A stretch of 64,000 nt of DNA, from IMG/VR virus record IMGVR_UViG_3300029705_000062; one strand, 5' to 3'. The position numbers were made by a program, and so were the translations under genes. The stretch's first letter is position 1. Each line of letters starts with the position of its first letter. Origin of the DNA: a virus. Under the pieces are notes generated by a model that made no database searches, was not told where the DNA came from, and saw only the letters and a list, made by a program, of their open reading frames with translations. Positions 9,527 through 40,188 of the stretch are shown here, piece by piece.

Positions 9527-9614
9527 AAAAATTATTGATATTTAATAATTTTTAACAATTTTTAATAAATTTAAGAAATGAATCAAGGGTTAGAATTATT
9601 GATAATTATTAAAA

Positions 9615-9660: not shown

Positions 9661-9907
9661 GAAAATTGTTAATTAAAAAATGGGTAAATAGGTTGCACTA
9701 AGTTTTTTAGAGTATGTTAGATAAAAAAATCTTAGATTTGATCGGAGTTGAACATAAAGCTGTCAAAGAGATTGGCAGAGTATAAGACTGTATACAGTTT
9801 TGGATGGGGCTTTCAACCTTTGATATTTTAAAATAGTTTAATATATTTTTAACTTTTGAAAATTATGGTATAATAATTGTGGGTAGGGTATCTCAGGGGG
9901 AAGTAAA

Positions 9908-11275: not shown

Positions 11276-11370
11276 ATTTTAAAAAACTATGTTACATTTT
11301 TAATTCTTCACTTCCAATATATATATGTAGGGCAAATGAATATGCTCAAATAAAATATATAGATAAAAGG

Positions 11371-11679: not shown

Positions 11680-11791
11680 TAAATAATTTTATTGTTGCAT
11701 AAAAATATATAAAAAGGCTATAATATTAGTAAGGATAATATTTTATATATTATTCACTAATCCTTTTTAAAATTTTTTTGCTAATATTGAT

Positions 11792-11820
11792 AAACACCTT
11801 TTCAGGTGTTTATTTTTTTT
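11792..11820 (+). terminator. Rho-independent terminator
   Basis: AAACACCT TTTC AGGTGTTT followed by a T-run of 8. Confidence 0.75.
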
Positions 11821-11833
11821 GGAGGAAAAGGAT

Positions 11834-12025
11834 ATGGCTAAGAAATCATTTTCGATATCATTTTCAAAATGTGAATTATACTTTGAAGAAAATGATGTTG
11901 TTGTAATAGAGAGAACAAAAGAAGAAGAAAAGACATATAACTTTTTAGAGGTTTTAAAAAGTCTTGAAGGTATAGAAGGATTAAGTATAAAAATATCTCA
12001 TGACAATGAACTTCCTACAGAGTAG
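11834..12025 (+). CDS. Small hypothetical protein (63 aa from the ATG at 11834)
   Basis: GGAGGAAAAGG RBS. The upstream part of the tracked ORF lies in the terminator T-run. Confidence 0.45.
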   Translation: MAKKSFSISFSKCELYFEENDVVVIERTKEEEKTYNFLEVLKSLEGIEGLSIKISHDNELPTE

Positions 12026-12142
12026 ACCTTCTTTATAGCTCTAGTTTTATTTAACTAGAGTTTTATAAGGGGGTTTACCCCTTCAATCTCTCACTCTTTT
12101 TAAGGGTAGGTAACTACCCTTATTTTTAAAAGAGGTGATTTT

Positions 12143-13039
12143 ATGGCTAAAAATCAAAAATGTTCTTGTTGTGGAAATTTAAAAAGCACAGTTACAGGTT
12201 ACTATATATCATACTCTCCTATGTGTGCATCTAATGATAAGAGAATGAACATATGTAAGGATTGTGTAATTGATATATATGAAAGATATGTTGATTTTTA
12301 TGGTGATGAAGTAAAGGCTTTATATAGAATTACATTATTATTTGATGGATACTTTAGCTCTTCCTTGGTTGATGTTTTAATGGCTCAAGCTAAGAAGACT
12401 AATACAAGTTTAGTTAGAGTATATTTTCAAAAGGTTAATTCTATGCCACAATTCAAGGGCAAAACAAGTTTAGATAGTGAATTTATGTCTTTAGAAGATG
12501 GATCAATCTATTCAGATGTAAGTTCAAGCGAAGAAGAAAATAATGTTGAAGTTGAAGATGATTTTATGGTTACTTCTGAAATGGTGAGAAGATGGGGTAG
12601 AGGTCTTCCAAAAGATGATTATGCTTATTTGGAAGAAAAATACCAAGAGCTAGTAGCAGTATATGACCATAGAAATCCTGTTCAACGTATGTTATATGAA
12701 AATATTTCTAGAACTCAATTAGAAGCAGAAAAAAGTAGAAGGTCAGGAAACTTACAAATGTATGAAAAAATGATGTCTACTTTATCTAAGTTAATGGGGG
12801 ATGGAAATATAAAACCTGTCCAAGAAAATACTGTGTCTGATGATGAAGCAAGTTTTGGTTTATTTATCAAGAAGATAGAAGATGAAGAGCCAATACCTGA
12901 GCCATTGGATGAATTTAAAGATGTAGATGGTTTCCGAAAGTATATCAATGAATGGTTTGTAAAACCTTTCGCTAGAATATTTGATTTAGATATGGAGAAC
13001 ACTACAAAGGAAGAAGAAGTTTATGAAGACGAAAACTAG
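12143..13039 (+). CDS. Putative terminase small subunit (position-based), N-terminal CxxC...CxxC zinc-ribbon-like
   Basis: Immediately upstream of terL and overlapping its start by 17 nt. Acidic C-terminal half. No motif-level proof. Confidence 0.4.
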   Translation: MAKNQKCSCCGNLKSTVTGYYISYSPMCASNDKRMNICKDCVIDIYERYVDFYGDEVKALYRITLLFDGYFSSSLVDVLMAQAKKTNTSLVRVYFQKVNSMPQFKGKTSLDSEFMSLEDGSIYSDVSSSEEENNVEVEDDFMVTSEMVRRWGRGLPKDDYAYLEEKYQELVAVYDHRNPVQRMLYENISRTQLEAEKSRRSGNLQMYEKMMSTLSKLMGDGNIKPVQENTVSDDEASFGLFIKKIEDEEPIPEPLDEFKDVDGFRKYINEWFVKPFARIFDLDMENTTKEEEVYEDEN

Positions 13040-13493
13040 GAAACGTAAAAGAGGTCTTCAACAGGACAGAGTTAATTTTAATGATGGAGTAAAGCTGTGG
13101 TGTGGTTTTTATAGAGAGCATATCCACAGATTTGCGGTAGATTATCTGCAATTACCACTATTTGGGTTTCAGATGATTCTACTATATATGATGAATATTA
13201 ACAATTTTTTCTATTTTTCTGCGAGTAGGGGCTTGGGAAAATCCTACTTAACATCTATATTTTGTTGTTGTAGATGTATTCTGTATCCTAACACAAAGAT
13301 TATAGTAGCGAGTGGAACTAAATCTCAGGCTAGGTTATTAATATCACAGAAGATAGAAAAAGAGTTGATGGGTATGTCTCCAAATTTAAGAAGGGAGATA
13401 GCCTATGTAAAAGTTGGGGCAAATGATGCCTTAGTAAAATTTAAAAATGGTTCAACAATAGAAGCAGTTGCATCTTCAGATAGTGCAAGAGGT
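13023..13493 (+). CDS. terL: Terminase large subunit, exon 1 (Walker A)
   Basis: SASRGLGKSY Walker A. The ORF stops 2 codons after ...SSDSARG. The frame continues in exon 2. Confidence 0.8.
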
Positions 13494-13769
13494 TATTAAA
13501 GATAGCCGTCTTAAATAGAAATATTTAAGATTATCAGAGGGTAAAATCGGAGAAAGCCTAAGTTAGAAGTAATATGGTAACACCGAGGTAATCAGGGAAA
13601 TTAAAGCATCCTTGACACCGTAGAGAGTAGATAGTGAAACTGCAAATGTAGAATATAATCTATCCACGAGTGTCCTCCACCTGACCATTAAGTTGAAGGT
13701 GAAAATATACTCCAAACTCATAAGAAATTATGAGAGCTGTAGATAAAGAGCTACAGGTTAATACAAATG
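13494..13769 (+). mobile_element. Group I-like intron 1 in terL (276 nt, no ORF)
   Basis: The upstream exon ends in T and the intron ends in G. Core blocks (GGGTAAAATCGG, AGCCTAAGT, GGTAACACCGAGGTAA, GAAACT, TAGAATATAAT) are shared with three other inserts. Removal fuses ARG to YRCNILILDE. Confidence 0.65.
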
Positions 13770-13834
13770 TATCGTTGCAATATTTTGATTTTAGATGAGT
13801 GTAGACTTATAAGTCAACATGTGCTTAACTCGAT
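13770..13834 (+). CDS. terL: Terminase large subunit, exon 2 (Walker B, 65 nt)
   Basis: Encodes YRCNILILDECRLISQHVLNS(I), an hhhhDE Walker B motif. Confidence 0.7.
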
Positions 13835-15274
13835 AAAAATGCATATTTGAGTTTTTGAGTGTAGTGTGATAACATTATTTTATGGAGGTGTTATCATGGA
13901 AGATAAATACTCAGAAAGTGAAAAACAATTTGTAATAGAGAATTACAATAAGATGACTAAAAAAGAGATTGCTAGATGTATTGGAAGAAGCGAATCATCT
14001 GTAAAAACTTTTGGAAAAAGAAATGGACTATGTAGACAATCGTCTAAAAAATGGACAGATGATGAAATAGAATTTTTAAAAAATAATTATATGAATATGA
14101 CACAGCAAGAGATGGCAAATGAACTTGGAAGAGGATATACAGCTATAAGAACAAAGTGTAGTTTGCTAGGTTTAGTTAAATTAGATTTAAGTTGGTCTGA
14201 TTCACATTCAGAGTTTTTGAAGAGTAACTATAAGAATATGACAGCCACTGAAATATCTAAAATATTAAATTGCAAAGTGTCAATGGTAAGAAACAAAGCC
14301 TTTGATATGGGACTCTTAAAAGATAGGTACACTATTGATAAAAAATTTTTTAAGTTTATAGATACAGAGGAAAAAGCCTATTGGTTAGGTTTTTTATATG
14401 CAGATGGTTGTGTAAGGAAATTTAAAGGAAAAAGCCAGTTATGTGTTGGTTTAAATGAAAGAGATATAAATCATTTGAAAAAACTAAAAAAATCTTTAAA
14501 ATCAAATGCTCCTATTTCAAAGAGAAGGAAAGATAATGCAGTTACCTTGACTATAAATTGCACTGAACTTGCAGAAGATTTAATTTCATTAGGTTGCATA
14601 CCTAGAAAAACATATAGTGAACTTTCCATACCATTGAATATACCACAAGATTTAAAACGACATTTTATAAGAGGTTTTGTTGATGGTGATGGGTGGATTA
14701 TAAATGGAGAGTACAATGGTTTTGATAGGGTTGGTATAGGTGTTGTATCTCTCAAAAAAAATATTCTATTAGATTTTAGAAAAGAATTTGAGAAACTTGA
14801 TTTACAAAGCAAAAATAAAAAATTAATATATGATAAATCAAGTAACACTTATAAGATAACTTATGCATCAAAAATAGATTCACATAAAATTTTAAATTAT
14901 TTATATAATAATTCAACAATATATCTTGATAGAAAGTATGAAAAAGCTCAAAAAGTAATGCAAAGATGTCGCACCACATCAACATCCATAGGAGATGTGG
15001 TTGAAAAGAGGGGAAAATCGGTCATAACTGAATAAATAAAATAAGTTGGTAAGAGAGCCTAAGTCCTAATGGGATATGGTAATACCGAGATAATCATGGA
15101 AAGTAAAAGTTCCATGACATTGTAGAGCATACAGGATGAAACTACAGTAGTAGAATATAATTCCTGCAAGAGTCTCCTTAAACTGTATGGATATAATAAA
15201 GTTTATAATATATGCCGAACTTATGGGAAACCATAAGAACTAGAGGATAAAAAGCCTTTAGGATAACATAATTG
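13835..15274 (+). mobile_element. Group I-like intron 2 in terL (1440 nt) carrying a LAGLIDADG endonuclease gene
   Basis: T before the 5' junction, G at the 3' end. Same core family downstream of the ORF. Removal gives ...VLNSI-LRPFLTVV. Confidence 0.65.
13896..15035 (+). CDS. Double-motif LAGLIDADG homing endonuclease with three N-terminal HTH-like repeats
   Basis: YWLGFLYADGCV and FIRGFVDGDGWI motifs. Three roughly 50-aa repeats (MTKKEIARCIGRSESSV / MTQQEMANELGRGYTAI / MTATEISKILNCKVSMV). GGAGGTG RBS before ATG 13896. Confidence 0.85.
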   Translation: MEDKYSESEKQFVIENYNKMTKKEIARCIGRSESSVKTFGKRNGLCRQSSKKWTDDEIEFLKNNYMNMTQQEMANELGRGYTAIRTKCSLLGLVKLDLSWSDSHSEFLKSNYKNMTATEISKILNCKVSMVRNKAFDMGLLKDRYTIDKKFFKFIDTEEKAYWLGFLYADGCVRKFKGKSQLCVGLNERDINHLKKLKKSLKSNAPISKRRKDNAVTLTINCTELAEDLISLGCIPRKTYSELSIPLNIPQDLKRHFIRGFVDGDGWIINGEYNGFDRVGIGVVSLKKNILLDFRKEFEKLDLQSKNKKLIYDKSSNTYKITYASKIDSHKILNYLYNNSTIYLDRKYEKAQKVMQRCRTTSTSIGDVVEKRGKSVITE

Positions 15275-15384
15275 ATTAAGACCATTTTTAACTGTTGTTC
15301 GTAGACCTAAGTTTTACGATAAACCACAATATAAAGATTATCCTCTTGAGGAGAATAAGGAGTTATACTTAACAAGTGCATGGT
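15275..15384 (+). CDS. terL: Terminase large subunit, exon 3 (110 nt)
   Basis: Encodes (I)LRPFLTVVRRPKFYDKPQYKDYPLEENKELYLTSAW(Y). The frame is consistent with the neighbouring exons. Confidence 0.65.
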
Positions 15385-15744
15385 AGTTAAAAATTGCCTA
15401 GTATCAAGTAAATTATGGGTGCTTGATACTGTAATTGGGCTAAATCGGTGCAGTTATGCATAGTTTTAATGATATCTGCATATCATTAAAATAAGAGAAG
15501 CTAAGTTTTATATAGTTCAAATTTATATAAAATATGCTAATACCGAGCTAACTAAAAAGGTAAAATCTTTTTAGAAGTGTAGAGCATAGTGGTTGAAACT
15601 ATACTTTTATATAAAAGCATAGAATATAAAACCACCAAGAGAGTCCAATCGTTGCCATAAATGACAAAGAGACGAAAAATATATGCCGACCTTATGGGAA
15701 ACCATAAGAACTAGAGGATAAAAAGCCTTTAGGATAACAATGTG
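15385..15744 (+). mobile_element. Group I-like intron 3 in terL (360 nt, no ORF)
   Basis: T/G junction rule satisfied. The 61-nt 3' end (15679-15739) matches intron 2 (15208-15268) with one mismatch. Confidence 0.65.
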
Positions 15745-16313
15745 ATAAAGAACATCATTCATATGATAAATTCGTTTCATTTAAAAATGATATGTGTAGA
15801 GGTAAAGATTATTTTTGTTGTGCTTTTCCATATCAATTAGCAGTTAAACATGGATTGCTTACTCAGTCTAGGGTTGAAGCCATAAGAAATGAAGAGGATA
15901 TGAATGAGATAACTTGGTTAATGGAAATGGAATCCATTTGGTATGGTGAGAGTATGAATGCTTTCTTTAAGTCCGCAGAGATAAATCCTTGCAGGACTAT
16001 GAAAAAAGCATGGAATCCACCAACTCCAATAGAGTATCTTCAAGAGAAAGATAAAACAAAGAAAAAATACTATCTACCTAAAGTGGGTGGAGAGAAAAGA
16101 ATAATAAGTGCCGATATATCAGTTATGGGAGGATCAGCAAATGATGCTTCCATTTTTACGTTGATACGATTAATCCCACAACATGAGGAATATATAAGAC
16201 ATGTTGTTTATATAGAATCTCATGAAGGTGGGAAGTCAGATAAACAGGCACTAAGACTTAAGCAATTATTTTACGATTTTCAAGCTGATTATATTGCACT
16301 CGATACACAGGGT
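15745..16313 (+). CDS. terL: Terminase large subunit, exon 4
   Basis: ...SAW-Y-KEHHSYDKF... through ...ADYIALDTQG. The tracked ORF 15792..16361 reads on into the intron. Confidence 0.75.
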
Positions 16314-16567
16314 AGGGAACTGCCCCTTACATTAGAAATAGTGTATAGAAAATTGGGTTAAAATTGGGAAGCTAAGGGTTTTTATCTATGCTAATCAATT
16401 ACCAATCTACATAGGGATATGTAGAAGGTTTAGAGACTAGGAGAAGTAATCTAGAACAGAAGAAACTCCCATGAAATCCAACATCTTAACTTATGAAGAT
16501 GAAGAGATAGTCCCACACTCTTATGAAAATAAGAGTTCTAGGATAAAGAGCCTAGATACAAGAGCTG
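16314..16567 (+). mobile_element. Group I-like intron 4 in terL (254 nt, second subfamily)
   Basis: Contains AAGAGATAGTCC (16502-16513), which resembles the canonical group I J8/7-P7 AAGAUAUAGUC element. Ends in ...CTG. The exact 3' junction is less certain. Confidence 0.55.
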
Positions 16568-17083
16568 AGTGGAATTGGTGTCTATGATGCCATAACTAAA
16601 GTACAATATGATGAAGACAGAGATGAAGAATATGAGAGCTTTAGAGCATTTAATGATGAAAAGATGAGTGAGAGAGCAGATAAAACTGCACTGCCAGTCA
16701 TATTCTCAATCAAAGTAGTTAAGCTTGATACAAACCATGAAATTGCAATGTCTTTAAAAGATGCATTCCAAAAAAGAAAAATAAAGCTGTTAATTAATGA
16801 GATAGAGGGAAGGGACTTCTTAGTTGAAAAACAAAATATGTTGAAGAAATCTCCTGAAGAACAGGCTTATATGATAAAGCCTTATGCTCAAACTACAGCT
16901 ATGATAAATGAGCTGATAAACCTTGATTCTCAAATTTATAATGGATTTATAAGAATAAGAGAAAGAGGTAGAAACCGTAAGGATAGATACAGTTCTCTAT
17001 CTTATGGAAATTATTTAGCTAAAATTCTCGAAAGAGATTTAAAGAAAACTAAGAAAAAAACTAAATTTATAAGTTTATGGTAG
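16568..17083 (+). CDS. terL: Terminase large subunit, exon 5 (nuclease domain C-terminus)
   Basis: Open frame SGIGVYDAITK... from 16568 continuing into tracked ORF 16664..17083. The five exons total 1731 nt, about 576 aa. Confidence 0.7.
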   Translation, partial: SGIGVYDAITKVQYDEDRDEEYESFRAFNDEKMSERADKTALPVIFSIKVVKLDTNHEIAMSLKDAFQKRKIKLLINEIEGRDFLVEKQNMLKKSPEEQAYMIKPYAQTTAMINELINLDSQIYNGFIRIRERGRNRKDRYSSLSYGNYLAKILERDLKKTKKKTKFISLW

Positions 17084-18526
17084 GTGGAAATGATGTCTGA
17101 AAAAGAAGTTAATTACAAAGCTCAACGTTTTGCAAAAGATAGTGTTTCATACTCTACACCTTCAGTAAAAACTCCTAAAAAGTATACTAAGCAAAATATA
17201 TTATCTTATTTAGAATCTCCTTTTAAAAATAGTAATTCACTGCAAGAAGTGTCTGCCTATATCAGGTATAATAATGGAGTTTATAACAGATTAATAAAAT
17301 ATTTTGCTAATATGCCTACATTTGACTGTATGTTGTATCCTTTAGAAGTTGATAGTAAAAAATCAACATCAGGAGAAAAGTTAATGAAGTCCTACCAAGA
17401 AACTGCCAAGTATGTAGAAAGATTAAATCCAAAATATAATCTAGGTTGGATGATAGACCGTCTACTTCAAGATGGAGAACTATACCTTTATAAAATAGAA
17501 GATAGCCAATCTGTAGTCTATAAGCAAATGCCAACAGATTTATGCAGGATTTCCTCTGTAGAAGACAATGTATGTAAATATGCTATAGATATAAGAAAAC
17601 TTAATACTAAGTCTATTTATGAAACAATGCCTGAAGAATTACAGAAACTTTCTGATAAATATCAAACTGGTGGTATAAAAGCAGAAGAATTAATAGATAA
17701 TGGTTGGTATGAATTACAGGAAAATGCTGTGGCTTTTAATGCCATATCACAATTTTTACCTAAAGGATTTCCACCATTTTCATATCTTTTTGATGGATTA
17801 ATGCACTTAGATGAAATGAAACAACTTCAATTCAACAGTGCTAATGCAAACAATTTAAAAATAATACATCAAAAAGTACCTATTGATGCAGATGGGGAGC
17901 TATTAATCGACTATGAATTGGTAGAGGAGTATCACAAAAGTACCAAAAGAAACTTGCCTGATGGCATAGCAATAACAACTAACCCACTTGATTTACAATC
18001 TGTAACCTTATCTAGAACTGGTGCAGAAGCTATAAATCAGAGAAATGATGCATTAGAAAGTTTACTTAATGATGCAGGTGTCAATTCTGAAATATTTAAT
18101 GGTGCAAAGTCTACAAATGAGGCTATTGCAATGGGAGTAAAGGTTGATGAAATGTTTATAAATAACATATTATCAATGTTTGAAAACTTCCTAAACTATG
18201 AAATAGCTCAAAATAAGAAAACAAGTTCTTGGAGGGTTAAACTGTTTAATTCAACTTACTTCTCAAGAGATGAATATATCAAAAGAAGTAGAGAGAATTT
18301 ACAGTATGGTGGTTCAAGATTAGAATATTTAGCAGTACAAGGCTTTAGTCCACTACAAGGCTACAATGTCTTAAAAGGTGAACAGGCACTTGGAATAGAT
18401 AAAATTCTAATACCACAGCAAACATCTCATACAATTAGCAGTACTTCTAGTGAAAATAATGGAAGACCTTCAAAAGAAGATACTGACAATACAGGAAGTG
18501 TTGCAAAAACACCTGAAAATCAATAA
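17084..18526 (+). CDS. Portal protein
   Basis: 480-aa ORF directly after terL, which is the canonical position and size. Confidence 0.7.
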   Translation: MEMMSEKEVNYKAQRFAKDSVSYSTPSVKTPKKYTKQNILSYLESPFKNSNSLQEVSAYIRYNNGVYNRLIKYFANMPTFDCMLYPLEVDSKKSTSGEKLMKSYQETAKYVERLNPKYNLGWMIDRLLQDGELYLYKIEDSQSVVYKQMPTDLCRISSVEDNVCKYAIDIRKLNTKSIYETMPEELQKLSDKYQTGGIKAEELIDNGWYELQENAVAFNAISQFLPKGFPPFSYLFDGLMHLDEMKQLQFNSANANNLKIIHQKVPIDADGELLIDYELVEEYHKSTKRNLPDGIAITTNPLDLQSVTLSRTGAEAINQRNDALESLLNDAGVNSEIFNGAKSTNEAIAMGVKVDEMFINNILSMFENFLNYEIAQNKKTSSWRVKLFNSTYFSRDEYIKRSRENLQYGGSRLEYLAVQGFSPLQGYNVLKGEQALGIDKILIPQQTSHTISSTSSENNGRPSKEDTDNTGSVAKTPENQ

Positions 18527-27245: not shown

Positions 27246-27369
27246 AGAGTAATAGATATTATTTATCTACTTTATTTTTATTTGTTAAAAATTTCTCACC
27301 TGAAAATAACATTATTTAAGATGTCAGGTGAAGATGACATTAAATAATATTTTTGAAGGGGGAGATGGA

Positions 27370-30300
27370 ATGTCAGATGTATTAAAGGTCAGGGTTGCAC
27401 TTGAACTTGATGCTATGGAATCAAGTAGGGATTTAAACAAAGCAATTGAAAAAATTGATTTACAGCCTATTTCAATAGGTTTAAGACTTGATCCAAATAA
27501 AGTTGATTTAAGTGCATTGCATAAACTTGATTTTTCTGATATTAGAAATAGATTTGAAGATATATTTGATATAGATAGTTCGGTTATTCGTGATTTAAGA
27601 GAATCTATGAACTCTATAGAAAGAATTATAAATACAAAGCTAAGTGTAAAAAACATAGCTATGTTTGACCAGTTAGCAGAGTCTTTAACTGATTTAGGAA
27701 GAGCTTTTAATATAGACACTAAATCACTAGATAGATTTGAAACATTAAACTCAACTCTTGCAGAGTTTAATAAACTTAGTAAGGAAGCTCAAAATGCACT
27801 TATTAGTAAAAATCCTACTAGAAAAGTTGTAGGTAATTTAGATGATATTTCTAATGAAGTAGATAAAAAGTTTGGAGTATCTTCTAGCCAACTTGCTAAG
27901 AGTATAGAAAAAGGCTCAAAGGAATTAAATGAGTCATTAGGAAAAATGGCAGATGCTCAAATAAAGAGTGCTACAAAATACCTTGATGTACAAGATGGTA
28001 TATCACAGGTTATAAGAAGTAAATGGAATGATTGGACAGATTTAACTGAAACTATTTTTACAGATGGAAGTAAATTAGGTAAATTAACTGCTAATACGGA
28101 AACTTACCTAAATAAAATGGAAAAACAGTATAAATCTGTTTCAGATAATATAAGAAAATATAGTATAGATTTACATAAGGCAATGTCTGAAGGTGATTTA
28201 GGTGGTATTGCTCACTATGAATCTATAATTAAAGATTTTAAAAATCTTAAGAAGAAAATGGTTGAGGATATAGGTGCTTCTCCATTTGCAGATAAATTAA
28301 ATTCAGAGTTTTCTAGAATAGATGCTTTAAATAAAAAAATTCAAGATTTTTCTACTTCACAGTATGATAGTGGAGTTTTAGAAAAACAGCAAAAGCAATA
28401 TATAGAAAAAATCGAAACTTTTGCTAATAAGATTTTAAAATTAAATAAAGAGATAAGTAAAGCCAAAGATGAAGGTTTGGTGGGGGAATATACACAAACT
28501 TTAATCTCAGATGTAAAAAAGGCAAAAGGTGAATTATCAAAGTATTTAAATGAAGCTGTAAAAGATATATTCCCTGATGACTTAAAAGCTAGAGCTGAAC
28601 TTAAGAAAAAAGCTACTGATATTGTAGAAGCTATGGATGATGCTAAAAATCTATTCCAAGCTAAAATAGATGAGAAGAGGGATAAAAAAACCCAAGATAG
28701 TGATTTAAGTAAATTTATAAAAGAATACAAGCAGAACATCAATGAAATAGAATCATTAAATAAAAAGATGGAAACTGCTTTAAGTAAAGGTCAGTTTGAC
28801 TATGCAAGTGATTTACAAACTGAAATTAATTTACTTAATAAAAAACAAGAAGAACTACAGAAAAATGCTAGTGCTTTAACTTCTTATAAAAATGCTATGA
28901 AGAGTGTTGCTGAGATAGAGGAAAAATCTAGGAAGAACACTGAGCTTCATAATTCTTACTTAGAGAATAGAAATAAACTTCAACAGCAACTGGCAGACAA
29001 AAAAGCAGAAGAAAAATTAGCCAAAGAAGAAAGTGCTAAAAGGGATCAAGAGTTAAGGGATATCCAAAATAAGCAAAAACAATATTGGGAGGATATGCTT
29101 AAGCATCAAGATATTGTAGCTAAAGGTTATGAACAAGTTACTAAAACTTTAACTGATAAGCAAAATCAATATATAAAAGCTTTATCTGAGGATTCTACTG
29201 AAAAGGCAAAGGGTCTTCAAGAAAGTATAAAATATTGGAAGGCACAAAAGGATAGCCTTCTTGATGAAATAAATAGAGGTAATTTTACTTCTGATTTCTA
29301 CGATAAGATAAATGCAATAGATAAAAGAAATAATTTAACTGTCAATGAGTTTGAAGGCTCTTTAAGTGACAAGATAGGAAAACAAAATAGTCAAAAAGAA
29401 AAAGCCTTAATTTCTGTCTATGATAAATTAGCTAAAAATCTTGCTAAACAAGAATCAAAAGTTTTAGAAGCTCTATCTAAAGGTAATATGGATCAATATG
29501 AAGCATATAAAAATACTTTAGATGAATATAAGCAACGTACTTCTGATTTTATTAAAGGTATAGATTTTGATAATTTTTCTTCTGAACTTAGAGAAGCATT
29601 TGCTAAAATTGATGTTGATAGTGGTTTACTATTATCTGAAAATATTGCAAAAGTAGATGATAAGTTAAGAGATAAACTTGTTAAAGATAATGAGAATTTA
29701 CAGAAATCTTTAATTAATGAATATAAAAATATATCTAAAGCTATCACTTCTAAAGAAGGAGAACTTGTAAAAGCATTTGCAAATGATAGTACACATTCAG
29801 CAGATGCTCTTGAGAGGACTTTAGAAGGTTTATATAAGCAACATGAAGAAACTATATCAAAAATAAAATCAAATAGCTTAGGTGATGTTTTAAAAGCTCA
29901 GATGGATGAGATAGATGCCATTAGAGTTAATAGGTTAGGTGAAGTTGACGGTAAGGTTGCAGATAGTTTAGAAAGAGAAAATTTAAAACAGGAAAATCAA
30001 GCTATAAGTAAACTTTTAGCAGAATATAGAAAAAATGCTACTGAACTTTCTAAATTAAAGAAAGAGATGTTTACTGCTCAAGAAGATGGGGCAACAGTTA
30101 AGTTTGCTCAATCTAGGATAGATGATTTAAACCTTGAACAACAGGAGATAAGAGAAAGCATAAAGGCTTATAATGATTATGCTAATGCTCTTAGTCGCAT
30201 AGATAGTTTACAAAGTCAAATTAATGCAAATGATGAACTTGCTAAAGCTAAGAATATTGATAAGGTCGCTAAGGAAACAGGAAAAAGCGAAGAAGATATT

Positions 30301-32151
30301 CTTAATAAGATAGCAAAAGAACGAGAAAAAATTGCTAAGTTAGTTGAGAAGGAACAGTCTTCTGTTGTTGATGTATATGAAAAATATGCCAAACTTGTTT
30401 CTCAAGCAGAAAAGCAATATCTAACTGCGGTTATTAATGATGATAATACTACTGCACAAGCTATAGAAAAAGTTATTGATAGATATCAAAAGTTAAAAGC
30501 TGATATTTTAAATCAAATAAATGATAAAGGTTTAGATACTTTATTTAAAGATAGACTTAGTAGTATAGACAAAGATATATCTCTTGATTTTAATATTCAT
30601 GCAGGTAAGTTATCTGACAAGGTAGCTAAAAATCAACTTAAAGAAGATGCAAAAGCATTGAAAGAATTTGTTGATGAGTATGATAGATTATATAAGAGTA
30701 TAACTGATGAAAAAATTAAGATAGCAAATTACAACCAAAAAGGTGAAACTGTAAATGCTCAGGCTCACACTTCTAATTTAAATAGACTTGAAAAAGAACT
30801 AAAAGCTCATAATAAAACTATCGAAGCCTTAAAGTACAAAGAAAAGGCTTTAAAAGAAGTTGCCAATATTGAAAAGCACTATGGCAATACCTTAGAATTA
30901 GGCATGGCAGGTGTTGGTCAAAAAATACAAACTTCTACTTATAAGGAGTTTAATAAACTTCAAAATGAGTTGGTATCTAAGTATAAGGATTTATACAATG
31001 AACAGTTAAGATTTGAAAAGGCTATATCTAAAGCTGTTGATACTTCTGAGTATAATAAATTAAATTCAGATTTAGAAAAAGTAAAAGATAAACTTAAAGA
31101 AATTAGAAGTCAAATAAAAAGCCAAGATCATATAGATAATATAGAATTATTTGAGGAAGGTAAGGTAACTGCTCAAAGTAGAGAGGTTACACAGTCTATA
31201 AGTAAGATAAGAAGTGAAGCAGAAAAACTTTTAGCTTCAACAAAGGAACTAAGAAATAGTGAGTTTGTAGATAAAGCTTCTTTATCTCTTGTTGAAAATT
31301 ACTTTACAAAATTATCTACAACAAGTCTTGATGGAACAATAAGTGATGTTAGGCAATTAAATACTCAATTAGCTCAAGCAAAAGATTTACTATCTCATTT
31401 GGAAAAAGGAATAGATAATAGAATTTTCCAATCTAATAAACAAATAGAGATGGGTAAAATTAATGACTCTATTGCTAAGTTTAAGAATGATTTTAGTGGT
31501 GTTTTAGATAGAGCATCTTTTGAAGCAATAGAATCTTCTGCAAGAAGATTAGCTAGTGTAATGGATAAAGATTCCTTTAGTCAAGGTGCTAAAGAATTAA
31601 CAGCTCAGTTAAAACAAGCTAGAAACCAAATGGATGGTTTGGTTAGATCAAGTAATAAGTATAATTTCTTTGAAGATTTATACACTAATATGAGAACATA
31701 TCAATTAGGTGATTTAATTTTTGATGGAGTGCAAAATGCTTTATATAGTGTTAAGCAGATAGTAATAGATTTAGATTCTGCTATGGCAAACATTAGAAAA
31801 GTTGCTGACCCTATCGATATCAATACAATTGATAAGTTAGATGAAATAAAATCTAAGGCTATACAAGTTTCTAAAGAAGTTGGTATGGCAAGTTCAGATG
31901 TTATAAATTCCATAGCTGATACTATCCAATCAGGTGGGTATCGTATGGAAGAAGCAATAGAAATTGCAAAGCAGACTATGATGTTAGCAAATGTTGGTGA
32001 GATGACTGCTGATAGTGCAACAAAAGGTGTTGTATCTATGTTAGCAGGATTTAACTTAAGTCCACTAAGAGAAATGCAAGTAGAAGTAAATGGCATGACT
32101 CAAAAGACAAATGAACTGACAAATGCAATGGATATGGTCAACCATGTGGGT
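27370..32151 (+). CDS. Tape measure protein, exon 1 (about 1594 aa, coiled-coil rich)
   Basis: Start chosen at the ATG after the GAAGGGGGAG RBS (the ORF is open from 27328). Ends ...AMDMVNHVG just before the conserved TMP core. Confidence 0.75.
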
Positions 32152-32517
32152 TAATTTATAGCTCCTGCATATAGTGATATATGCTGAAAATTTCTTGAAT
32201 TGCTAAAAAATCCTTAGAGATTGTTAAACTACAACATGACTGGAAACGGTGAGTGTGAATGTTTTAAAAATTAACAATATTGGACAATTAGCAGGGAAGA
32301 TTCTAAATTATAATAATTTTAATAAAAATGCATATAATAAAATTGTAACAAGAATAACCTTCAACGACTATTGCAGACATGCAAGTACATCACAAGCTAT
32401 GGGTGATGGAAGTGGGAAACATCCCTAGTGGATGAAGATATAGTCTACTCTATATGGAAACATATAGCAGTTCATAGGAGAACGGTGTATGTGTAGCGAA
32501 CATATATGAATAAAAGG
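32152..32517 (+). mobile_element. Group I-like intron 1 in the tape-measure gene (about 366 nt, no ORF)
   Basis: Contains AAGATATAGTC (32435-32445), identical to the classical group I J8/7-P7 element. An in-frame stop at 32494-32496 forces the 3' splice site to 32498-32517. The exact junction is ambiguous (G32508 or G32517). Confidence 0.55.
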
Positions 32518-32672
32518 AATAACTTTGCAATTTCAACAGAAGGTATTATAAATGCAATGCAAAGTGGGGGTACTGTTTTACATTCATATGGAATAGATAT
32601 GGAAAAAACAATTGCTCTTATCACTGGTGCAAATAAGACCTTACAAGACCCTAGTGTTACTGGGAATGGGCT
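32518..32672 (+). CDS. Tape measure protein, exon 2 (conserved TMP core, about 52 aa)
   Basis: NNFAISTEGIINAMQSGGTVLHSYGIDMEKTIALITGANKTLQDPSVTGNGL matches the conserved TP901-type tape-measure core pattern (from memory). Confidence 0.7.
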
Positions 32673-33968
32673 AAGATTTTGGCGTTCTATGTAGAAATAT
32701 ATAGAAAGATAAGAGGGCAAAATCGGTCATAGTTATTGTGAAATAACTGGTAAGAAAGTTTAAATCTTGGTATAAAAAATAAAAAATAGTAATATAATTA
32801 CATAGGAGGTGTATCTGAATATGGCGAGAAGATTCTCATATGAAGAAGTTAAAACCTATGTACAATCAAAGGGAGTTGAGTTAGTAAGCACAGAATATAT
32901 AAATGGGAAAATTCCATTAAATTTTATATGTAAATGCGGAAAACCATTTAAAAGAAATTTAAAAAATTTTAAATACAATAATCTGTGTTTAAGGTGCGGT
33001 AGTAATTCTCTTTCTTATGAAGAGGTTAAAGAATACATTGAGTCAAAAGGGTGTAAATTAATAAGTGAAGAGTATGTAAACAATGAAACTGAATTGGAGG
33101 TTAAATGCCCCTGTTCAAAAACTTACTTTGTAATGTTTAGGGATTTTAAATCTAAAAAAAGATATAAGTGTCCTACATGCAATAAAAGACCAAACTACAC
33201 ATATGAAGAGGTTAAACTTTTTGTGGAAGGTAAAGGATGTAAATTAATCAGTAAAACTTACATTAATAATGCCACTAAATTAGATATTGTATGTAAATGT
33301 GGAGAGCCATTTAAAAGAAGGTTTAATAGTTTTAAAGACTCTCAACAATATTTTTGTTTAAAGTGTAGTAAAACTTCAAAAGGTGAGTTAAAAATAAAGG
33401 AAATATTAACTAACTATAAAATTAACTTTATACACCAATATAAGTTTGATGATTGTAAATTTAAACATCCTCTTGTTTTTGATTTTTACTTACCTGAATA
33501 TAATATATTAATAGAATATGACGGAAGACAACATTTTGAAATAGTTAAAGCATTTGGAGGGTTAGATGAATTTATTAATATTAAAATAAGGGATACTATA
33601 AAAAATGAGTATTGTAAAAATAATAATATAAAACTAATAAGAATACCTTACTGGGAATTTAAAAACCTAAAAAAACATTTAACTAAAATATTAAATGAAA
33701 ATATCAAGATAAAATAACACCGAGGTAAGTCAAAGAAGTAAAGAACTTTGACCACCGTAACGCATAGGATTTGAAACTATGCTTTTTTTTATGAAAAAAG
33801 TATAGAATATAATAATCCCAAGAGTGTCCTCCACCTGACCATTAAGTTGAAGGTGAAAATGTATGCTAAACAGGGTATGAAAAGACATACCGATAACTTT
33901 AGTAAAATAAAGAAATGAGGGAAACCTCCTGAGCCTAAGATAAAAAGCTTAGGGATAATAACAATTTG
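32673..33968 (+). mobile_element. Group I-like intron 2 in the tape-measure gene (1296 nt) carrying a Vsr-like endonuclease gene
   Basis: The exon ends in T32672 and the intron ends in G33968. Junction codon CT|A gives GNGL-KSIAINMAGIK. Cores AGAGGGCAAAATCGG, TAACACCGAGGTAA, TAGAATATAAT and a 39-nt block match terL intron 1. Confidence 0.7.
32821..33717 (+). CDS. Intron-encoded endonuclease: three zinc-ribbon DNA-binding repeats plus a C-terminal Vsr/PD-(D/E)XK-like nuclease domain
   Basis: Three roughly 55-aa repeats (SYEEVK.Y.ESKG..L.S..Y.N....L...C.CG..F.....F). C-terminal FDFYLPEYNILIEYDGRQHF...IRIPYWE is typical of Vsr-like/DUF559-type nucleases. TAGGAGGTG RBS. Confidence 0.7.
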   Translation: MARRFSYEEVKTYVQSKGVELVSTEYINGKIPLNFICKCGKPFKRNLKNFKYNNLCLRCGSNSLSYEEVKEYIESKGCKLISEEYVNNETELEVKCPCSKTYFVMFRDFKSKKRYKCPTCNKRPNYTYEEVKLFVEGKGCKLISKTYINNATKLDIVCKCGEPFKRRFNSFKDSQQYFCLKCSKTSKGELKIKEILTNYKINFIHQYKFDDCKFKHPLVFDFYLPEYNILIEYDGRQHFEIVKAFGGLDEFINIKIRDTIKNEYCKNNNIKLIRIPYWEFKNLKKHLTKILNENIKIK

Positions 33969-36900
33969 AAAATCTATTGCCATTAATATGGCAGGTATAA
34001 AAGCTGATGCTTATACAGGCGAACTAGCTTTAAATAAAACAGCTCTTGCTCTTAAAGAAATAGCAAATATAGATGTCTACTCTGATAAGAAAAAGGGTGA
34101 GATAAAAGATATGGTTTCTATCCTTGACGAACTGTATGAACGTTGGGGAGATTTTACGGAAGAGGAACAGCTTGGACTAGCTGAAAGTATAGCGGGTAAG
34201 CAACAGTCCAAAGTTTTCCAATCTTTAATGACAAACTACAAAGATGTTTTATCTGTTAGAGAGCAATTATCTAATCAGGAACATTTTGGTAGTGCAGAAA
34301 GAGAGAATACTCAATACTTAGATAGTATCAGTGGTAAACTAAATGAGCTTAAGCAAACATGGATTTCTATATTAGATACATTTGCAAATTCAGATAGTAT
34401 AAAGAGTGCATTAGATGTGCTAATATCTGTATCTGAAGGTGTGGAAACAGTTGTAAAAGCTTTGGATGATGCAGGAATATTATTACAAGCTACTTTCACA
34501 GCATTTACATCAGGTGGAAGTCTACTTAAGAATCTAGCAGGATTTGGTGAAAGTTCTTATCAAATAAGACAAGTTGGAAATTCATTACAGCTTGTTGCAA
34601 CTCAAGCTAGTGCAGGAAATATACCACTAAAGCAAATGTTTAGTGGATTTACTAAGGGAACTACAGTAACTCAAAAACTTGGTAATGGATTAAAAACACT
34701 TGGTAAGTCTATGACTGCAAATTTAATACCAAGTTTTAAAGGTATGCTTTCAGCAGGATTAAAAGGCATGGCTGTGTCAGCAGTGATTACAGGTATTGGA
34801 TATGCACTTGATAAAACTGTAAATAAGTATAAGAATTTAGATAAGGAGTTACAGGCTCAAGCTGATACTACAGCTTCGCAACTAGAAGGATATAAAAAGC
34901 AAAAAAGTAGTTTAGAAGCTTTAGCAGATCAGTATGATACATTAGCTAAAAAATCTAATAAAACTGCTGAGGAACTTGCAACATTTAATGAATTAAAACA
35001 TCAAATTGCAGATTTATCTCCTGATTTGGTAATAGGTTATGACAGTGAGAATAATCCTATACTAAACTTAAATGGTAGCTTAGAAACATATATATCAAAC
35101 TTAGATGATGCCATTACTAGACAAAGAACTTTACTAGCAGGAGATAGTATGGCAGTTGGTAAAAATGCACTTGATAGTTTAAGTAGCACTTTAAACTTTA
35201 ACTTAACTCCTGATTTTAAATTAGATGATAGTGCTTTAAAAGAACAAGATGAAGCTATAGGTACTGCTAGGGAAAATTTAGTTAAAAAGCTTAATAAAAT
35301 AAATGAAGGACTTAACTTCAAAAGCCTTGAAGGAGAGTTAAAAAGTTATGCTCAACAAAATGACAAATACAATGAGCAGATAGTAAAGAGCTATCAAAAA
35401 GTTCAGGAAGCTCATGCTAAGATAACTGAACAAACATCAAAAGCAAAACAAGGTATAAATGCTCAATTAATGGACACTTCTGAAATGAAGAAAGCAGGGG
35501 AAGAAGTTCAAAAACTTGGAGCAAAAATGATTTCTGCTTTTGACTGGTCAGAGGTGGATTCAAATAGAGTTGACCAAATGGTTTACAATATGTCTAAAAA
35601 TCTTACTTCAGGGGAGTTTGATACAGCACTACAAAAAGTTGCGGAACTTAGACAAGAGCTTGAAGAAACTTATGATGTTGAAAAGTATGAATCACAAATA
35701 GATAAGTTCGTACCTCAAGTAGCAGATTTCTTAGGTGTATCAGAAGACATGGCTAGGTCTATGTTAAAAGTTCCTGAGATAATGAAGAGTTCAGAAGATG
35801 CTTTAGATCAGTTCCTTAGAACTATGGGTAAAACTAAAAAGTCTTTAAACTTTGATGTTGAAGCTCAAAATTTAGCGGAACAGTTCTATGCTGTTAATGA
35901 TGCAATATATCAATTAGCAGATACCTCAAATCTTGTAACAATAGATAATAAAATACAATTAAATCCTGAACTTGTTTTAAACACACTAAATAATGAATCT
36001 ATTCCTGAGCAAATAAGGAAATTATTAGGAGAGTTTAATAAAGACGGAGTTGTTGATGTTGGCGAAGTAGAACTTATGCTAGATGTTATGACAGCATTTA
36101 AATTAGGGGACACTCACCAGTCAAAAGAAATATTGGCACAAGTTCAAGAGGAGTTAGATAAAACATTAGGTGAAGGTGTAATAAATGTAAAAGACCTTAA
36201 ATTTGATGTTAATGGAAAAGTTGAAAATGTCAATATAGATAGCAAGGAACTTGAAGAAAAATTATCTGTACTTGGTGATAAGAAAGAATTAAAAACTCTT
36301 TTCACAACTGAGGTTATAGGATTAGATAGACTAGAATATTATACAGAAATTGTAAATAAGCTTCCTGCTGATTCTGAACATACAGAGAAATTTATAGTTG
36401 ATAATCAACAGGCTATATCTGAATTAAATAACTATAAAGAAGTAAAGGAATGGATAATAGCTCATCCTGAAGTTATTTCTAAATATAGATTAAATGTAGA
36501 AAAAGACCCTGAACTTAAAACTGCCTTAGAAGAATTTGAAAAGAACAACGGTAAAACAAGTGAAATTAAGGCTAAAGTAACAGAAGAAGGGGCAGATGAA
36601 ACTAACCAAAAACTTGAGGAAACAAAGAATAAAGCTGATGAGCTAGATAATAAAGATATTAACTTAACAGTTAATAATGGAGAATTACAAGGCTCAGTAG
36701 AAGATTTTAATAAACTTATAGAATACTCATCTAAATTAAAAGATGGTGAATATAAGTTATCTTTTACCTCTGACACTGGTGAATCTATAAACCAAATAAA
36801 TAATCTTAAAAATGCTATAAATGACCTTTCAGGTGCATTTAGTTCTTTACCTAGTGTAACAGTAAAAATTGAAACAGCACTTGCTAGTCAGAATATAACA

Positions 36901-39900
36901 GGATTAAGAAATAATATAGAAAGTTTTAAAACTTTAGCAGGTGGATTACAAACATTAGTATTTAAGACTGATACTGCACTTGCTAGTAAGAATGTTACAG
37001 GATTAAGAAATAATGTAGATAGTTACATTAAACAAAGAGCAGGGAAATCTTATTCTACAAGATTTAACACTGAGACAGCCTTAGCTAGTAAAAATGTTAC
37101 TGGTTTAGCAAATAAGGTTTCTAGTTATGTAAGAAGCTATGGTAATAGAACTATTAAGACTACTTTTAGTGTGGTAACAAAATATTCTACACAGGGAACT
37201 CCTACAACTCAAAGCAAAGGAGCAAAAGTTACTGGAAGAGCTATTCCTACATATGTTCCTGAATCATATGAAGTGGCACAGGTAAATGCTTCTCCTTTAA
37301 GTGAGTTTGCCAATCAAGTTCAAAGTGATACTGTAGCAATACAACGTATGGCAAGAACTGGTCAGGGAGTTTCAGAAGCTGTATCATCATATAGTTCTTC
37401 TATGGCTAGTATATCATCAAGAGCATTAACAAAAGCATTAGATAGTAATAAAGTTATTGATATGCTAAATCTTGATGTTGATCCTTTTAAAGATTTAGAA
37501 GATGTTTTAGAAAGAATTTCCAGTGAGTTAGATTTACTTAGTAAAAAAGCTGACTTAGCTTTTGGAAATGAAAAAATAACATATCTTAAAAGACAAGTAG
37601 AACTTCTTAAACAACAACAGCAAATCCAAAATAAACTAAGTAAAGATTATGCAACTCAACAAAATGAGTTAAAGTATTACTTAGGAAAAAAAGGATTTAC
37701 CTTTAACAGTCAAGGTGATGTAACTAATCAAGTTGATAAGTTATATCAAATGGAAAAATACGTTAAACAGCTTGAAGATAAAGTTAATGCACAGGGAGAT
37801 AAGAAAAATGAAGCTTTATCTAAGCAGTATGAAAGTGCTAGAGATGAATTAGAAAAAACTAAGGAAGTCTTAGAAGAGTATGTTAATAATAATTCTAAGG
37901 GTGTTACTGGTGCTACTAAGGAATGGTACGAACTTCAACAACAAATAAATGAAGCTCGTATGGAGATAATTCAAGCAACTATAGATGCTAAGAATTTTAA
38001 GTTTGAGATAGGTGCTAAAAAGTTTGAAGCAGAAGTTGATAAATTATCTAATGCAATTAACTTAATAGATAAACAGATTGAATATGCTTTTGGAGATGAA
38101 AAAGATAAGTTATTCAAGAAGAAGATAGAGTTATTAAAGAAACAGCAAAAAGAAGTTCATAATTTAGCTAACCAATATAGGGAACAGGCTAAAAGTATAG
38201 GGCAATTTTTAAATCAACAAGGTTTTATAATTAATTCCAGTGATGGAAGTATAGGTAATATAGAACACCTAGAGAGCTTTAAAAACAGTGGAATATATGA
38301 AGAAATAACTGAACAACTAGAGAAGTATATAGAATTAACTCAAAGTAAAATACCTGACCTTCAAGAAGAATGGTGGGAACTAAGAGAAGCAATAGATGAA
38401 GCTAGAATTGCTACTTTAGAAGCAAAAGATGAAATGTCTGATTTAGTATTAGAAATAAATATTTCTAAACTAGATACTGCTCTTAAAAAGATAAAGACTG
38501 AAATCAATAGACTAGAAAGAGAAATTGATAAAGCCTTTGGTAGCAAGAAAGAAGGTTTATTAAATGATAAGATAGATAAGTTAAAAGAAGAGCAAGATAA
38601 ACTTCATCAAATGGCAAATGAATATAGACAGCAAAGGCAAGAAATAGCTAACTTCTTAAATTCAAAAGGGTTTATAATTCATCCTGATGGCTCAATAGGA
38701 AATCCTGAATTTATCCTTAGCTTTAAAGAAGACCCTGCTCTAATGGAGTATTTACAAGGTCTTATAGATAAACATACTAGCTTAGGTGATAAAATAGCTG
38801 ACCTTGGAGAAGATTGGTGGAGTGTTCAAGATTCCATAGAAGATACAAAAGATGCTATAGAAGAAGCTAGAAAAGAATTAGAAAAATTCTTAAATGAAGC
38901 GAAAATTGAAGCACTGCTTGACCAGTTTAATGACCTTGCTCATAAACTTGATTTAATAGATAAAAAACTTAAACATGCAACTGGCAAGGATAAGTTAGAT
39001 TTATTAAGTCAAAAACTTGAGTTAATAAAAGAACAACAAATAGAATTACAAAAACATTGGGAGTTCTTTACTAATAAAAAGAATACTCTTCAAATGGAGT
39101 TAGGTCAACTAGGATTTACATTTGATGCAGATGGAGATATTACAAATTATGTAGAACAACTTGAAAGTATAGCTAACTCATCTGATGATTTTGAGGAAGT
39201 TAAAGATAAGTTAGAAGAATACTTTGATATTCAAAATGATAGATTACCTAGTATTGAAAGTGATTGGCTAGACCTTGAGAATACATATAAAGATGTCTTA
39301 AAAGAACAGCTTAATACAACTAAGGAAATTGAAGATAAAATTACTGAAATGTATAAAAAGCAAGTTGAAGACAGAATAGATGCAATGAACAAGGAAACTG
39401 ATGCCAAGATAAAAGCTCTTAAAAAGCAACAGGATGCCTATAATAAATATCGTGAAGAAACTGATTACAAAAATGAGTATGAAGATAAATTATTAGAAAT
39501 AAATGATATACAAAGGCAACTTGATATAGCAATGAAAGATACTTCTTTGGCAGGGCAAAAGAAAGTTAAGGAGCTACAAAAGCTATTAGCTGATGCTCAA
39601 AAGGAGTTAGATAAATTCACTCAAAATAAAATTGATAGTGATATCAATGATATGTTTGATAAAGAGAGTGAAAGAATAGAAGAAGAAAATGATAAGGCTA
39701 TAGAAGAGCTTGAGAAAGAATGGTCAGATAGTAAGATAGCTGAAATGGTTGCACAAGCATTACAAACTGGTATATTTACAGGAATAGATGGAAGTGTACA
39801 AGACCTTCAAGATGCTATGTTACAATTTGCCAATGATACTGGTGAATTGTTTGGAGTTATGGGAACTGTTATAAAATCCGAGTTAATAACTAACTTAGAT

Positions 39901-40188
39901 ATAGCAAAAAATACAGTTAAAGAACTTAACAAGATAATTAAAGAATTAGACTTGGAACAATTTGCGGTACTATCAGGTGCTTCAAGTTTTAGTAGAACTA
40001 TTTCAGGAGTAAGTATGGAAAGTTATACAAAGCCTATTCAAAATAATTATAGTCCTGAAATAAGATTTGATTCTCCATTAATTCATATAGAAGGAAATGT
40101 TGATAATGATGTATTAATGACTCTTGAAAGCTACGGAGAAAAATTAACTAAAGATATAATAAATCAAATTGCAGGAGCAATAAGATAA
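33969..40188 (+). CDS. Tape measure protein, exon 3 (about 2073 aa)
   Basis: The frame is open from 33970 (KSIAINMAGIK...), upstream of tracked ATG 33988. Hydrophobic segment near aa 250, then long coiled-coil repeats. Confidence 0.75.
36871..37140 (+). repeat. Three tandem 33-aa repeats (ETALASKNVTGLRNNV.S) inside the tape-measure gene
   Basis: ETALASQNITGLRNNIESF / DTALASKNVTGLRNNVDSY / ETALASKNVTGLANKVSSY. Confidence 0.8.
37500..39250 (+). repeat. Four tandem modules of about 140 aa inside the tape-measure gene
   Basis: Each module has L(D/I)L(L/I)(S/D)K..(A/E/K).AFG.(E/K)K......(I/V)ELLK.QQ ... N..GF(T/I)(F/I).....G.I.N plus WWEL/WWSV/WLDL. Confidence 0.75.

Follow-up and report, generated by a model that had tools for sequence, protein, structure and literature searches.

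A phage tape-measure gene very probably interrupted by two unrelated group I introns within its TP901-type core

The IMG/VR virus record IMGVR_UViG_3300029705_000062, of which a stretch of 64,000 nucleotides (the window) was analysed, carries on its (+) strand what we consider, with a probability of about 90%, to be a single tape-measure protein (TMP) gene at positions 27370-40188 that is interrupted by two unrelated group I introns of subgroup-IA type inside its TP901-type core; the assignment was made to the level of subgroup IA rather than to IA1 or IA2. The gene would thus consist of three exons and two intervening introns. Exon 1 (27370..32151, 1,594 codons by open reading frame (ORF) list and translation) most likely starts at ATG 27370, which lies downstream of the ribosome-binding site GAAGGGGGAG at 27355-27364, although its frame is open from GTG 27328; it ends in ...MDMVNHVG with the last codon GGT, the final base of which, U32151, is at the same time the 5' splice-site U of intron 1. 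Exon 2 (32518..32672) is a micro-exon of 155 nucleotides with 51 codons and the CU of a split leucine codon and encodes the peptide NNFAISTEGIINAMQSGGTVLHSYGIDMEKTIALITGANKTLQDPSVTGNG(L). In exon 3 (33969..40188) A33969 finishes this codon, 2,072 codons and the stop come after it, and the peptide begins with (L)KSIAINMAGIK. Counted from ATG 27370 the spliced product comprises 3,718 amino acids (1,594 + 52 + 2,072), and counted from GTG 27328 the join 32151/32518 yields an ORF of 3,733 codons; altogether about 11.1 kb of exon sequence are open in frame.

The ORF list itself presents this gene in pieces, as ORFs of 1,608 (27328..32154), 62 (32506..32694) and 2,066 amino acids (33988..40188), with a further ORF of 302 amino acids (32809..33717) in the second gap. 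A first-pass annotation of the same DNA had nevertheless proposed that the gene contains two group I-like introns, and this proposal is now supported by an Rfam match for intron 1, by covariation for intron 2 and by the colinearity of the encoded domain. Translation bears out the readings on which it was built: the first ORF ends in ...AMDMVNHVG before its stop, the 62-residue ORF contains NNFAISTEGIINAMQSGG...GANKTLQDPSVTGNGL, the frame of exon 3 is open back to 33970, just past the TGA at 33967-33969, where it reads KSIAINMAGIK, and joining T32672 to A33969 recreates the codon CTA and the peptide GNGL-KSIAINMAGIK. The ligated sequences are predicted to be GTCAACCATGTGGGT followed by AATAACTTTGCAATT at junction 1 (32151/32518) and ACTGGGAATGGGCT followed by AAAATCTATTGCC at junction 2 (32672/33969), with the junction peptides VNHVGNNFAISTEGIINAMQSGG... 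and a GNGLK-spanning peptide, respectively.

Domain score as well as gene position place the gene in the TP901 family of tape-measure proteins, the core of which is described by PF10145 and TIGR01760. This core is distributed over all three exons. The last 200 amino acids of exon 1 match positions 3-87 of the 201 positions of PF10145, the micro-exon matches positions 87-139 of PF10145 and 127-179 of TIGR01760, and the ORF starting at the exon-3 ATG 33988 matches positions 150-201 and 189-345, respectively. When spliced in silico, the segment aligns with PF10145 in a single stretch (3-201 of 201) at 88.8 bits (cut-off 33.2) and with TIGR01760 at 90.1 bits (cut-off 28.8). The earlier suggestion that the micro-exon is exactly the segment conserved across TMP families is thus in need of correction, as the micro-exon makes up only the middle of the conserved core.

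The same continuity is seen in other phages. In a tblastn search with the spliced segment of 319 amino acids, 117 out of 50,697 phage records matched, and in 108 of these at least 80% of the query was covered at one place, mostly by an uninterrupted single piece. The nearest relatives are the 130-kb phiCD211-like phages of Clostridioides difficile, with 36-52% amino acid identity. Among them, AR1086-1 is uninterrupted at both junctions (...LDLSNYAGNNFAITT... and ...VQNAEKVGTALKTIGINMSGIKA...), phiCD211 is continuous at junction 1 and LIBA2945 at junction 2, and two distant metagenome TMPs contain the identical peptide NHVGNNFA without interruption. Intronless homologs read NYAGNNFAITT or NHVGNNFAVGT at junction 1 and VGTALKTIGINMSGIKA at junction 2, ungapped in either case. 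Of the two joins that had been proposed for junction 1, both of which are in frame, 32151/32518 is therefore favoured over 32151/32509, as the latter inserts NKR at a place where none of these alignments shows a gap.

Intron 1 (32152..32517, + strand) is a group I intron of 366 nucleotides without a credible ORF, and it opens with an in-frame TAA. The Rfam Intron_gpI scan proposed in the first-pass annotation, when run on positions 31900-34200, recognises it with the curated covariance model RF00028 at 32142-32467 (70 bits, the gathering score being 50; E=3.8e-17; the match spans all 253 positions of the model), including the conserved catalytic core from P3 to P9, and leaves intron 2 unmatched. 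The element AAGATATAGTC at 32435-32445, which had been described as identical to the J8/7-P7 element of group I introns, is indeed identical to the Rfam consensus at this place. In P1, GGGU 32148-32151 pairs with GCUC 32161-32164, so that the splice-site U32151 forms a U·G pair with G32161, and the intron ends on G32517, which is followed by AAUAAC; both the U·G pair and the terminal G expected at group I splice sites are hence present. The position of the terminal G is supported by comparison with the homologous intron of AR1086-1. Following a hairpin with an AGCGA loop, the tail of intron 1 reads UGAAUAAAAGG up to the 3' splice site and parallels the corresponding tail UUGAAGAUUUUG of AR1086-1, with a length of 11 nucleotides to G32517 in intron 1 and of 12 nucleotides in AR1086-1. 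Within the hairpin itself, base changes are compensated both in AR1086-1 and in a relative from IMG/VR of about 76% DNA identity, which also shares the splice context of intron 1. Moreover, pCD1602_4 contains an intron at exactly the codon boundary of junction 1 (...AAT TAT GCT GGT/TAA...GTGAAAG/AAT AAT TTT GCT, slashes marking the splice sites).

According to the Rfam alignment, intron 1 carries a 40-nucleotide insert at the place of P7.1/P7.2, where manual reading suggests two hairpins. Over about 55 nucleotides of its P7-P9 region, intron 1 shares 91-93% identity with Lactococcus r1t-like and with Staphylococcus phages. The r1t-like records show no feature under this match and the Staphylococcus records either none or only coding sequences (CDSs) for a 'hypothetical protein'. 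Group I introns are present in Lactococcus phage r1t and in the Twort-like phages of Staphylococcus. An ORF of 59 amino acids inside intron 1 (32249-32428), which metagenome annotations list as a gene of 57 amino acids, overlaps P5-P6 of the ribozyme; no ribosome-binding site is seen in front of it, and it is probably not a gene.

Intron 2 (32673..33968, + strand, 1,296 nucleotides) belongs to a different intron family, here called family 2. The first-pass annotation had placed it in the same family as three introns of the large terminase gene (terL) of this phage, and this holds: the intron shares an exact repeat of 39 nucleotides with a terL insert (33822-33860 and 13668-13706), and a search of the window with an nhmmer profile of family 2 yields four copies and no more, with starts at 33718, 13581, 15083 and 15541. 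When intron 2 with its ORF deleted was used as blastn query, the family-2 core was found in the TMP introns of phiCD211, LIBA2945, pCD1602_4 and ES-S-0173-01 and also in phages of C. perfringens, Staphylococcus, Streptococcus and Arcanobacterium, where it lies in terL or in the TMP gene. The structure of the family was derived manually by comparison and then scored for covariation. In intron 2 it comprises P1 (32670-32674 with 32679-32683, including U32672·G32681), P2 (32687-32693 with 32698-32704), P3 (32713-32718 with 33826-33831), P4 (32723-32727 with 33719-33723), P6 (33729-33735 with 33746-33752), P7 (33762-33766 with 33862-33866), P7.1 (33767-33771 with 33814-33818), P7.2 (33777-33788 with 33794-33805) and P8 (33832-33836 with 33851-33855), with G33968 as the terminal G. 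With U32672·G32681 and G33968, the splice-site rules hold at precisely the join 32672/33969 that had been proposed.

In an alignment of the family-2 3' core from 15 sequences, 98.7% of the cells are paired, and in 23 of the 34 pairs both bases have changed. Covariation is scored at 0.548, a value reached by none of 500 shuffles (shuffled mean 0.162), and pairing in slid controls amounts to 34-52%. A composite alignment of 12 sequences, which combines the 5' part through P4 with the 3' core, gives a similar picture (97.0% of cells paired, 35 of 58 pairs compensatory, again 0 of 500 shuffles as high, slid controls 37-46%). In this set, covarying pairs amount to 6/6 in P3, 6/7 in P6, 4/5 in P8 and 2/5 in P7, with P7 and P8 being free of broken cells, and the covariants of P3 include GAGGGC/GUCCUC, CUUACC/GGUAAG, GUAACC/GGUUAC and UUGAGC/GCUCGA. 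Of the 12 members, 11 have U·G as their splice-site pair, and all 15 members of the larger set end in ...UG. The helices are arranged in the canonical order P3-P4-P6-P7-(P7.1/P7.2)-P3'-P8-P7', with P3 crossing P7. This order with its P3/P7 pseudoknot, together with the covariation, argues for a group I core in intron 2, and the extra helices P7.1, with five pairs which all covary in the 15-sequence set, and P7.2, with 12 pairs, point to subgroup IA.

Several observations weigh against this interpretation of the locus. To begin with, we infer splicing, endonuclease activity and homing in this phage from DNA. The curated model does not recognise intron 2, as RF00028 has no match to it in 31900-34200 at E<=10, and likewise it has none to the ORF-less family-2 locus of ES-S-0173-01 (1.3-kb scan, E<=10). 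What supports the group I status of intron 2 is hence the manually derived structure together with its covariation, and from the composite alignment the variable P5/ORF region had been cut out. P1 of both introns involves only 3-4 exon base pairs. For intron 1, the Rfam alignment uses another P1 register, U32147·G32167, which with G32516 as the terminal base also gives an in-frame product, VNHV-NNF. Finally, a search for an intronless allele of this exact phage, using exact 20-22-mers across the ligated junctions, gave 0 matches in viral contigs. As to the missing Rfam match, the model also left the family-2 introns of terL unmatched in a scan of 9500-17200; RF00028 is blind to family 2 as a whole, which accounts for its silence on intron 2.

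Could the three segments then be genes in pieces, translated separately and assembling without RNA splicing, with the inserts being mobile endonuclease cassettes or dead intron remnants? GenBank does list the homologous genes of phiCD211, LIBA2945 and AR1086-1 as two separate CDSs each, ATG codons are present at 32506 and 33988, and splicing is deduced here rather than observed. However, neither ATG has a ribosome-binding site at a usable distance, whereas the ORF within intron 2 has an AGGAGG. The breaks moreover fall inside one conserved domain where homologs are continuous, the conserved leucine in front of the lysine is restored only if A33969 completes the CU at 32671-32672, and both inserts, unlike dead remnants, retain an intact catalytic-core structure with compensatory changes. 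We therefore regard separate translation as very unlikely. That the gene is a decaying one in a defective element, with introns that have lost the ability to splice and without a functional tape measure, is scarcely credible. Such decay would be in keeping with the loss from intron 1 of whatever endonuclease gene it may once have carried, but the long exon sequence has stayed open in frame, the intron cores are intact, identical genes occur in many metagenome contigs, two of them of about 126 kb, and the relative of about 76% DNA identity retains both the splice context of intron 1 and a compensatory change in its hairpin.

A somewhat less improbable, though still distinctly unlikely, variant keeps the same introns and moves junction 1, either to 32151/32509, which adds NKR, or to 32147/32517, the register in which Rfam pairs U32147 with G32167 and which gives VNHV-NNF without the glycine. 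Both joins are in frame and have an intron that follows a U and ends on a G, and the IMG/VR relative retains ATGAAC AAA AGG in frame. Yet homologs read N-(Y/H)-(A/V)-G-N-N-(F/Y)-A with the glycine conserved and no insertion, the pCD1602_4 intron lies exactly at GGT/...G/AAT AAT, and the alternative would leave a tail of 2 nucleotides past the AGCGA-loop hairpin as opposed to 12 nucleotides in AR1086-1. Other explanations were rejected: inteins because the inserts contain in-frame stops and structured RNA cores, group II introns because there is no Rfam match to them and the cores have group I topology, and programmed frameshifting or readthrough because the inserts are 366 and 1,296 nucleotides long with many stops.

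How would the interrupted gene be expressed? According to our reading of one gene with two introns, it would be transcribed as one late mRNA in which each intron folds into its catalytic core and P1 presents the splice-site U as a U·G wobble (U32151·G32161 and U32672·G32681). An external guanosine would attack after this U, and the freed exon end would then attack after the terminal G (G32517 and G33968), so that ligation yields ...VNHVG-NNFAIS...GNGL-KSIAINMAG... and thereby a single TMP of 3,718 amino acids. Unspliced mRNA would give a truncated product only, because intron 1 opens with an in-frame TAA. The homing-endonuclease-like gene of intron 2 would be translated separately and presumably cut intronless TMP alleles of co-infecting relatives, the predicted target being ...ACTGGGAATGGGCTAAAATCTATTGCC..., whereupon repair of the cut allele would copy intron 2 into it. 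Intron 1, being without an endonuclease gene, would be a passively inherited passenger.

A more speculative extension of this scheme is that the family-2 intron is naturally promiscuous and spreads to new sites by reverse splicing or drift of its guide sequence instead of endonuclease homing. For P1, three exon bases suffice in this family (GCU, or else GGU/GUU once the guide has changed to match); within the TMP core of related phages the intron is seen at no fewer than five different sites, and the terL gene of this phage contains it three times, which together would make such a spread possible. Separately, the in-frame stop at the start of intron 1 might allow the efficiency of its splicing to set the ratio of truncated to full-length TMP and in this way to provide a checkpoint in tail assembly. 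We consider these ideas unlikely.

The ORF of intron 2 (32821..33717, + strand, 298 amino acids) is preceded by an AGGAGG ribosome-binding site at 32804-32809, 11 nucleotides upstream of its ATG at 32821, and it is placed between the two strands of P4, that is, in the P5 region of the intron. In its product, three repeats (YEEVK...CxCG) at the N terminus are combined with a nuclease-like domain at the C terminus. The product strongly matches PHROG families that are labelled HNH endonuclease, homing endonuclease and intron-encoded nuclease (phrog_559, E=5e-71; phrog_9084 'homing endonuclease', 1e-30; phrog_7140 'intron encoded nuclease', 2e-16), but no Pfam or NCBIfam family above threshold and no PDB sequence. 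Sub-threshold Pfam hints are confined to RAP (E=0.003) and DUF559 (E=0.085), both of which are restriction-endonuclease-like folds; they may point to such a fold for the intron-2 product. A single-sequence AlphaFold model was unusable (mean pLDDT 44.9). The identical protein is encoded on 23 metagenome contigs among the matches listed.

The split layout of the locus, with gene calls of 1606/57/62/298/2066 amino acids, recurs in metagenome contigs from several independent samples (JGI, ENA and Logan), which rules out an assembly artefact. The phage is present in samples JGI 3300024270, 3300024269 and 3300018878, ENA ERZ272483xx and SRR7031455. Among the matches listed per look-up there were 23 contigs with an identical protein and no layout without the inserts, two of the split-layout contigs being about 126 kb long; likewise, all listed contigs with an identical exon-3 protein either have the split layout or end inside an intron. 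A search for related loci in metagenome contigs gave no confirmed relative. In the IMG/VR record of about 76% DNA identity, IMGVR_UViG_3300029305_008799 (2770-3522), intron 1 is at the same site, and a family-2 intron with a homologous endonuclease apparently starts about 11 nucleotides upstream, after ...CCT ACT GTT GTT. Its guide has changed from GGC to GAC, matching GUU at the splice site, and the contig ends inside the endonuclease gene.

In the phiCD211-like C. difficile phages, the TMP core contains between one and three introns belonging to these two families, at sites that differ from phage to phage, and pCD1602_4 has three. Taking the window and five C. difficile phages together, seven distinct sites are occupied within about 130 codons of the TMP core, and each of them is empty in some relative. 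Such a polymorphism of presence and absence is the pattern that would be expected of mobile introns. Family-2 copies always follow GCU and have the guide sequence UUGGC, apart from the changed guides mentioned above. The intron regions lie, in locus numbering, at 2521-3500 in pCD1602_4, 9376-9663 in LIBA2945, about 9793-10074 in AR1086-1 and about 534-823 in ES-S-0173-01, and are not annotated as introns in any of these four records. In the phiCD211 record NC_029048.2 we find two introns in the TMP gene as compared to a single annotated Intron_gpI (locus 9538-10133, corresponding to 28580-29175 of the record): a family-2 intron (9538-9825) and an Rfam-type intron (9859-10133) flank a micro-exon of 33 nucleotides (9826-9858) that encodes EKVGTALKTIG. 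The CDSs on either side of the two introns are annotated as separate proteins, and in-silico splicing yields exactly the uninterrupted VQNAEKVGTALKTIGINMSGIKA of AR1086-1.

Two phages of other hosts also have a family-2 intron in the TMP gene. In Streptococcus phage Javan355 it carries an ORF and the locus is annotated as TMP, homing endonuclease and TMP, and in Staphylococcus phage PG-2021_4 it carries an ORF that lacks annotation. In the two phages the changes in P3 are completely compensated (CUUACC/GGUAAG and GUAACC/GGUUAC, respectively).

Introns in TMP genes have been known since 2008, and the phage described here is a further, ordinary example. The first-pass annotation, which was not aware of a standard example, was mistaken in this respect, as such introns have been published repeatedly (PMC2504315; PMC10448857) and the RefSeq record of phiCD211 (NC_029048.2) annotates an Intron_gpI between two TMP CDSs. 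In prophages of the Bacillus cereus group, group I introns of the IA1/IA2 subgroups occupy three sites in TMP genes (TMP-IVS1/2/3), some of these genes have two introns, and the same prophages contain terL introns (Tourasse & Kolsto 2008, NAR 36:4529; PMC2504315). As in the present phage, IA-type introns there lie at several alternative sites inside the TMP gene, P1 adapts related introns to differing sites, different introns share one site, and some introns have no complete endonuclease gene (PMC2504315). The present case differs in host clade and TMP lineage and in that its two introns are only 155 nucleotides apart. In the vibriophage ICP1, RNA-seq as well as reverse-transcription PCR with Sanger sequencing established a TMP transcript with four exons plus three introns, and TMP was described as a frequently interrupted gene (Barth et al. 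2023, NAR Genom Bioinform; PMC10448857). There, too, the TMP gene is multi-exon and terL is split, and one intron carries an endonuclease gene where intron 2 here has an endonuclease-like ORF. Splicing was demonstrated in ICP1, however, and is predicted here, the host of ICP1 is Gram-negative, its endonuclease is of the HNH-3 type, and no sequence relationship between its introns and those of the window was found.

The closest parallel is provided by the phiCD211-like phages (phiCD211, LIBA2945, AR1086-1, pCD1602_4 and ES-S-0173-01), which share a homologous TMP core and the same two intron families: introns of both families flank a micro-exon in phiCD211 as well, and pCD1602_4 has an intron exactly at junction 1. 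Different from the window, the intron-2 site GNGL/K is empty in all of them, their family-2 introns are devoid of an endonuclease ORF, exon 1 has 541 amino acids in phiCD211 as compared to about 1,594 here, and DNA identity is confined to the intron cores. With respect to RF00028, intron 1 matches the full model while the family of intron 2 escapes it. What is new here, then, is the TMP insertion site GNGL/K, a family-2 copy bearing an endonuclease-like ORF, a very long TMP and a clear view of the hot spot. The locus offers a well-resolved example of introns and homing endonucleases piling up in the most conserved parts of TMP and terL genes and leaves the general picture unchanged. For annotation it means that three ORFs and the spurious 57-residue gene call in intron 1 should become a single TMP of 3,718 amino acids, and the public records of phiCD211, LIBA2945 and AR1086-1 share the error of a split TMP.

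The terL gene of the window (13023-17083) contains four inserts. Three are family-2 introns: the one at 13494-13769 is followed on its 3' side by a short exon with the Walker B-like motif ILILDE, the second ends at 15274 and carries a LAGLIDADG ORF (13866-15035, PF14528), and the third has its core at 15540-15744. The fourth intron (16303-16535) reaches 63.5 bits with Rfam, only in a 600-nucleotide scan. When the window was scanned with Rfam over its full 64 kb, in gathering mode and at E<=0.01, no group I intron was found, whereas two, intron 1 of the TMP gene and the fourth terL intron, exceed the gathering score once pieces of 0.6-2.3 kb are scanned. The miss in the whole window is due to the speed filters of the search. 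The default filters of Rfam thus overlook even detectable group I introns in this AT-rich 64-kb window, and the family-2 intron, which is widespread in Firmicute phages, escapes RF00028 altogether.

At 3,718 amino acids, for which a mass of roughly 400 kDa is predicted, the spliced TMP is unusually long, the TMP of phiCD211 having about 2,700 amino acids by exon sum. By the rule of roughly 1.5 Å per residue it would correspond to a tail of about 0.55 µm. The gene 3' of the TMP gene has a weak Dit-like match, as is expected of the gene that follows TMP.

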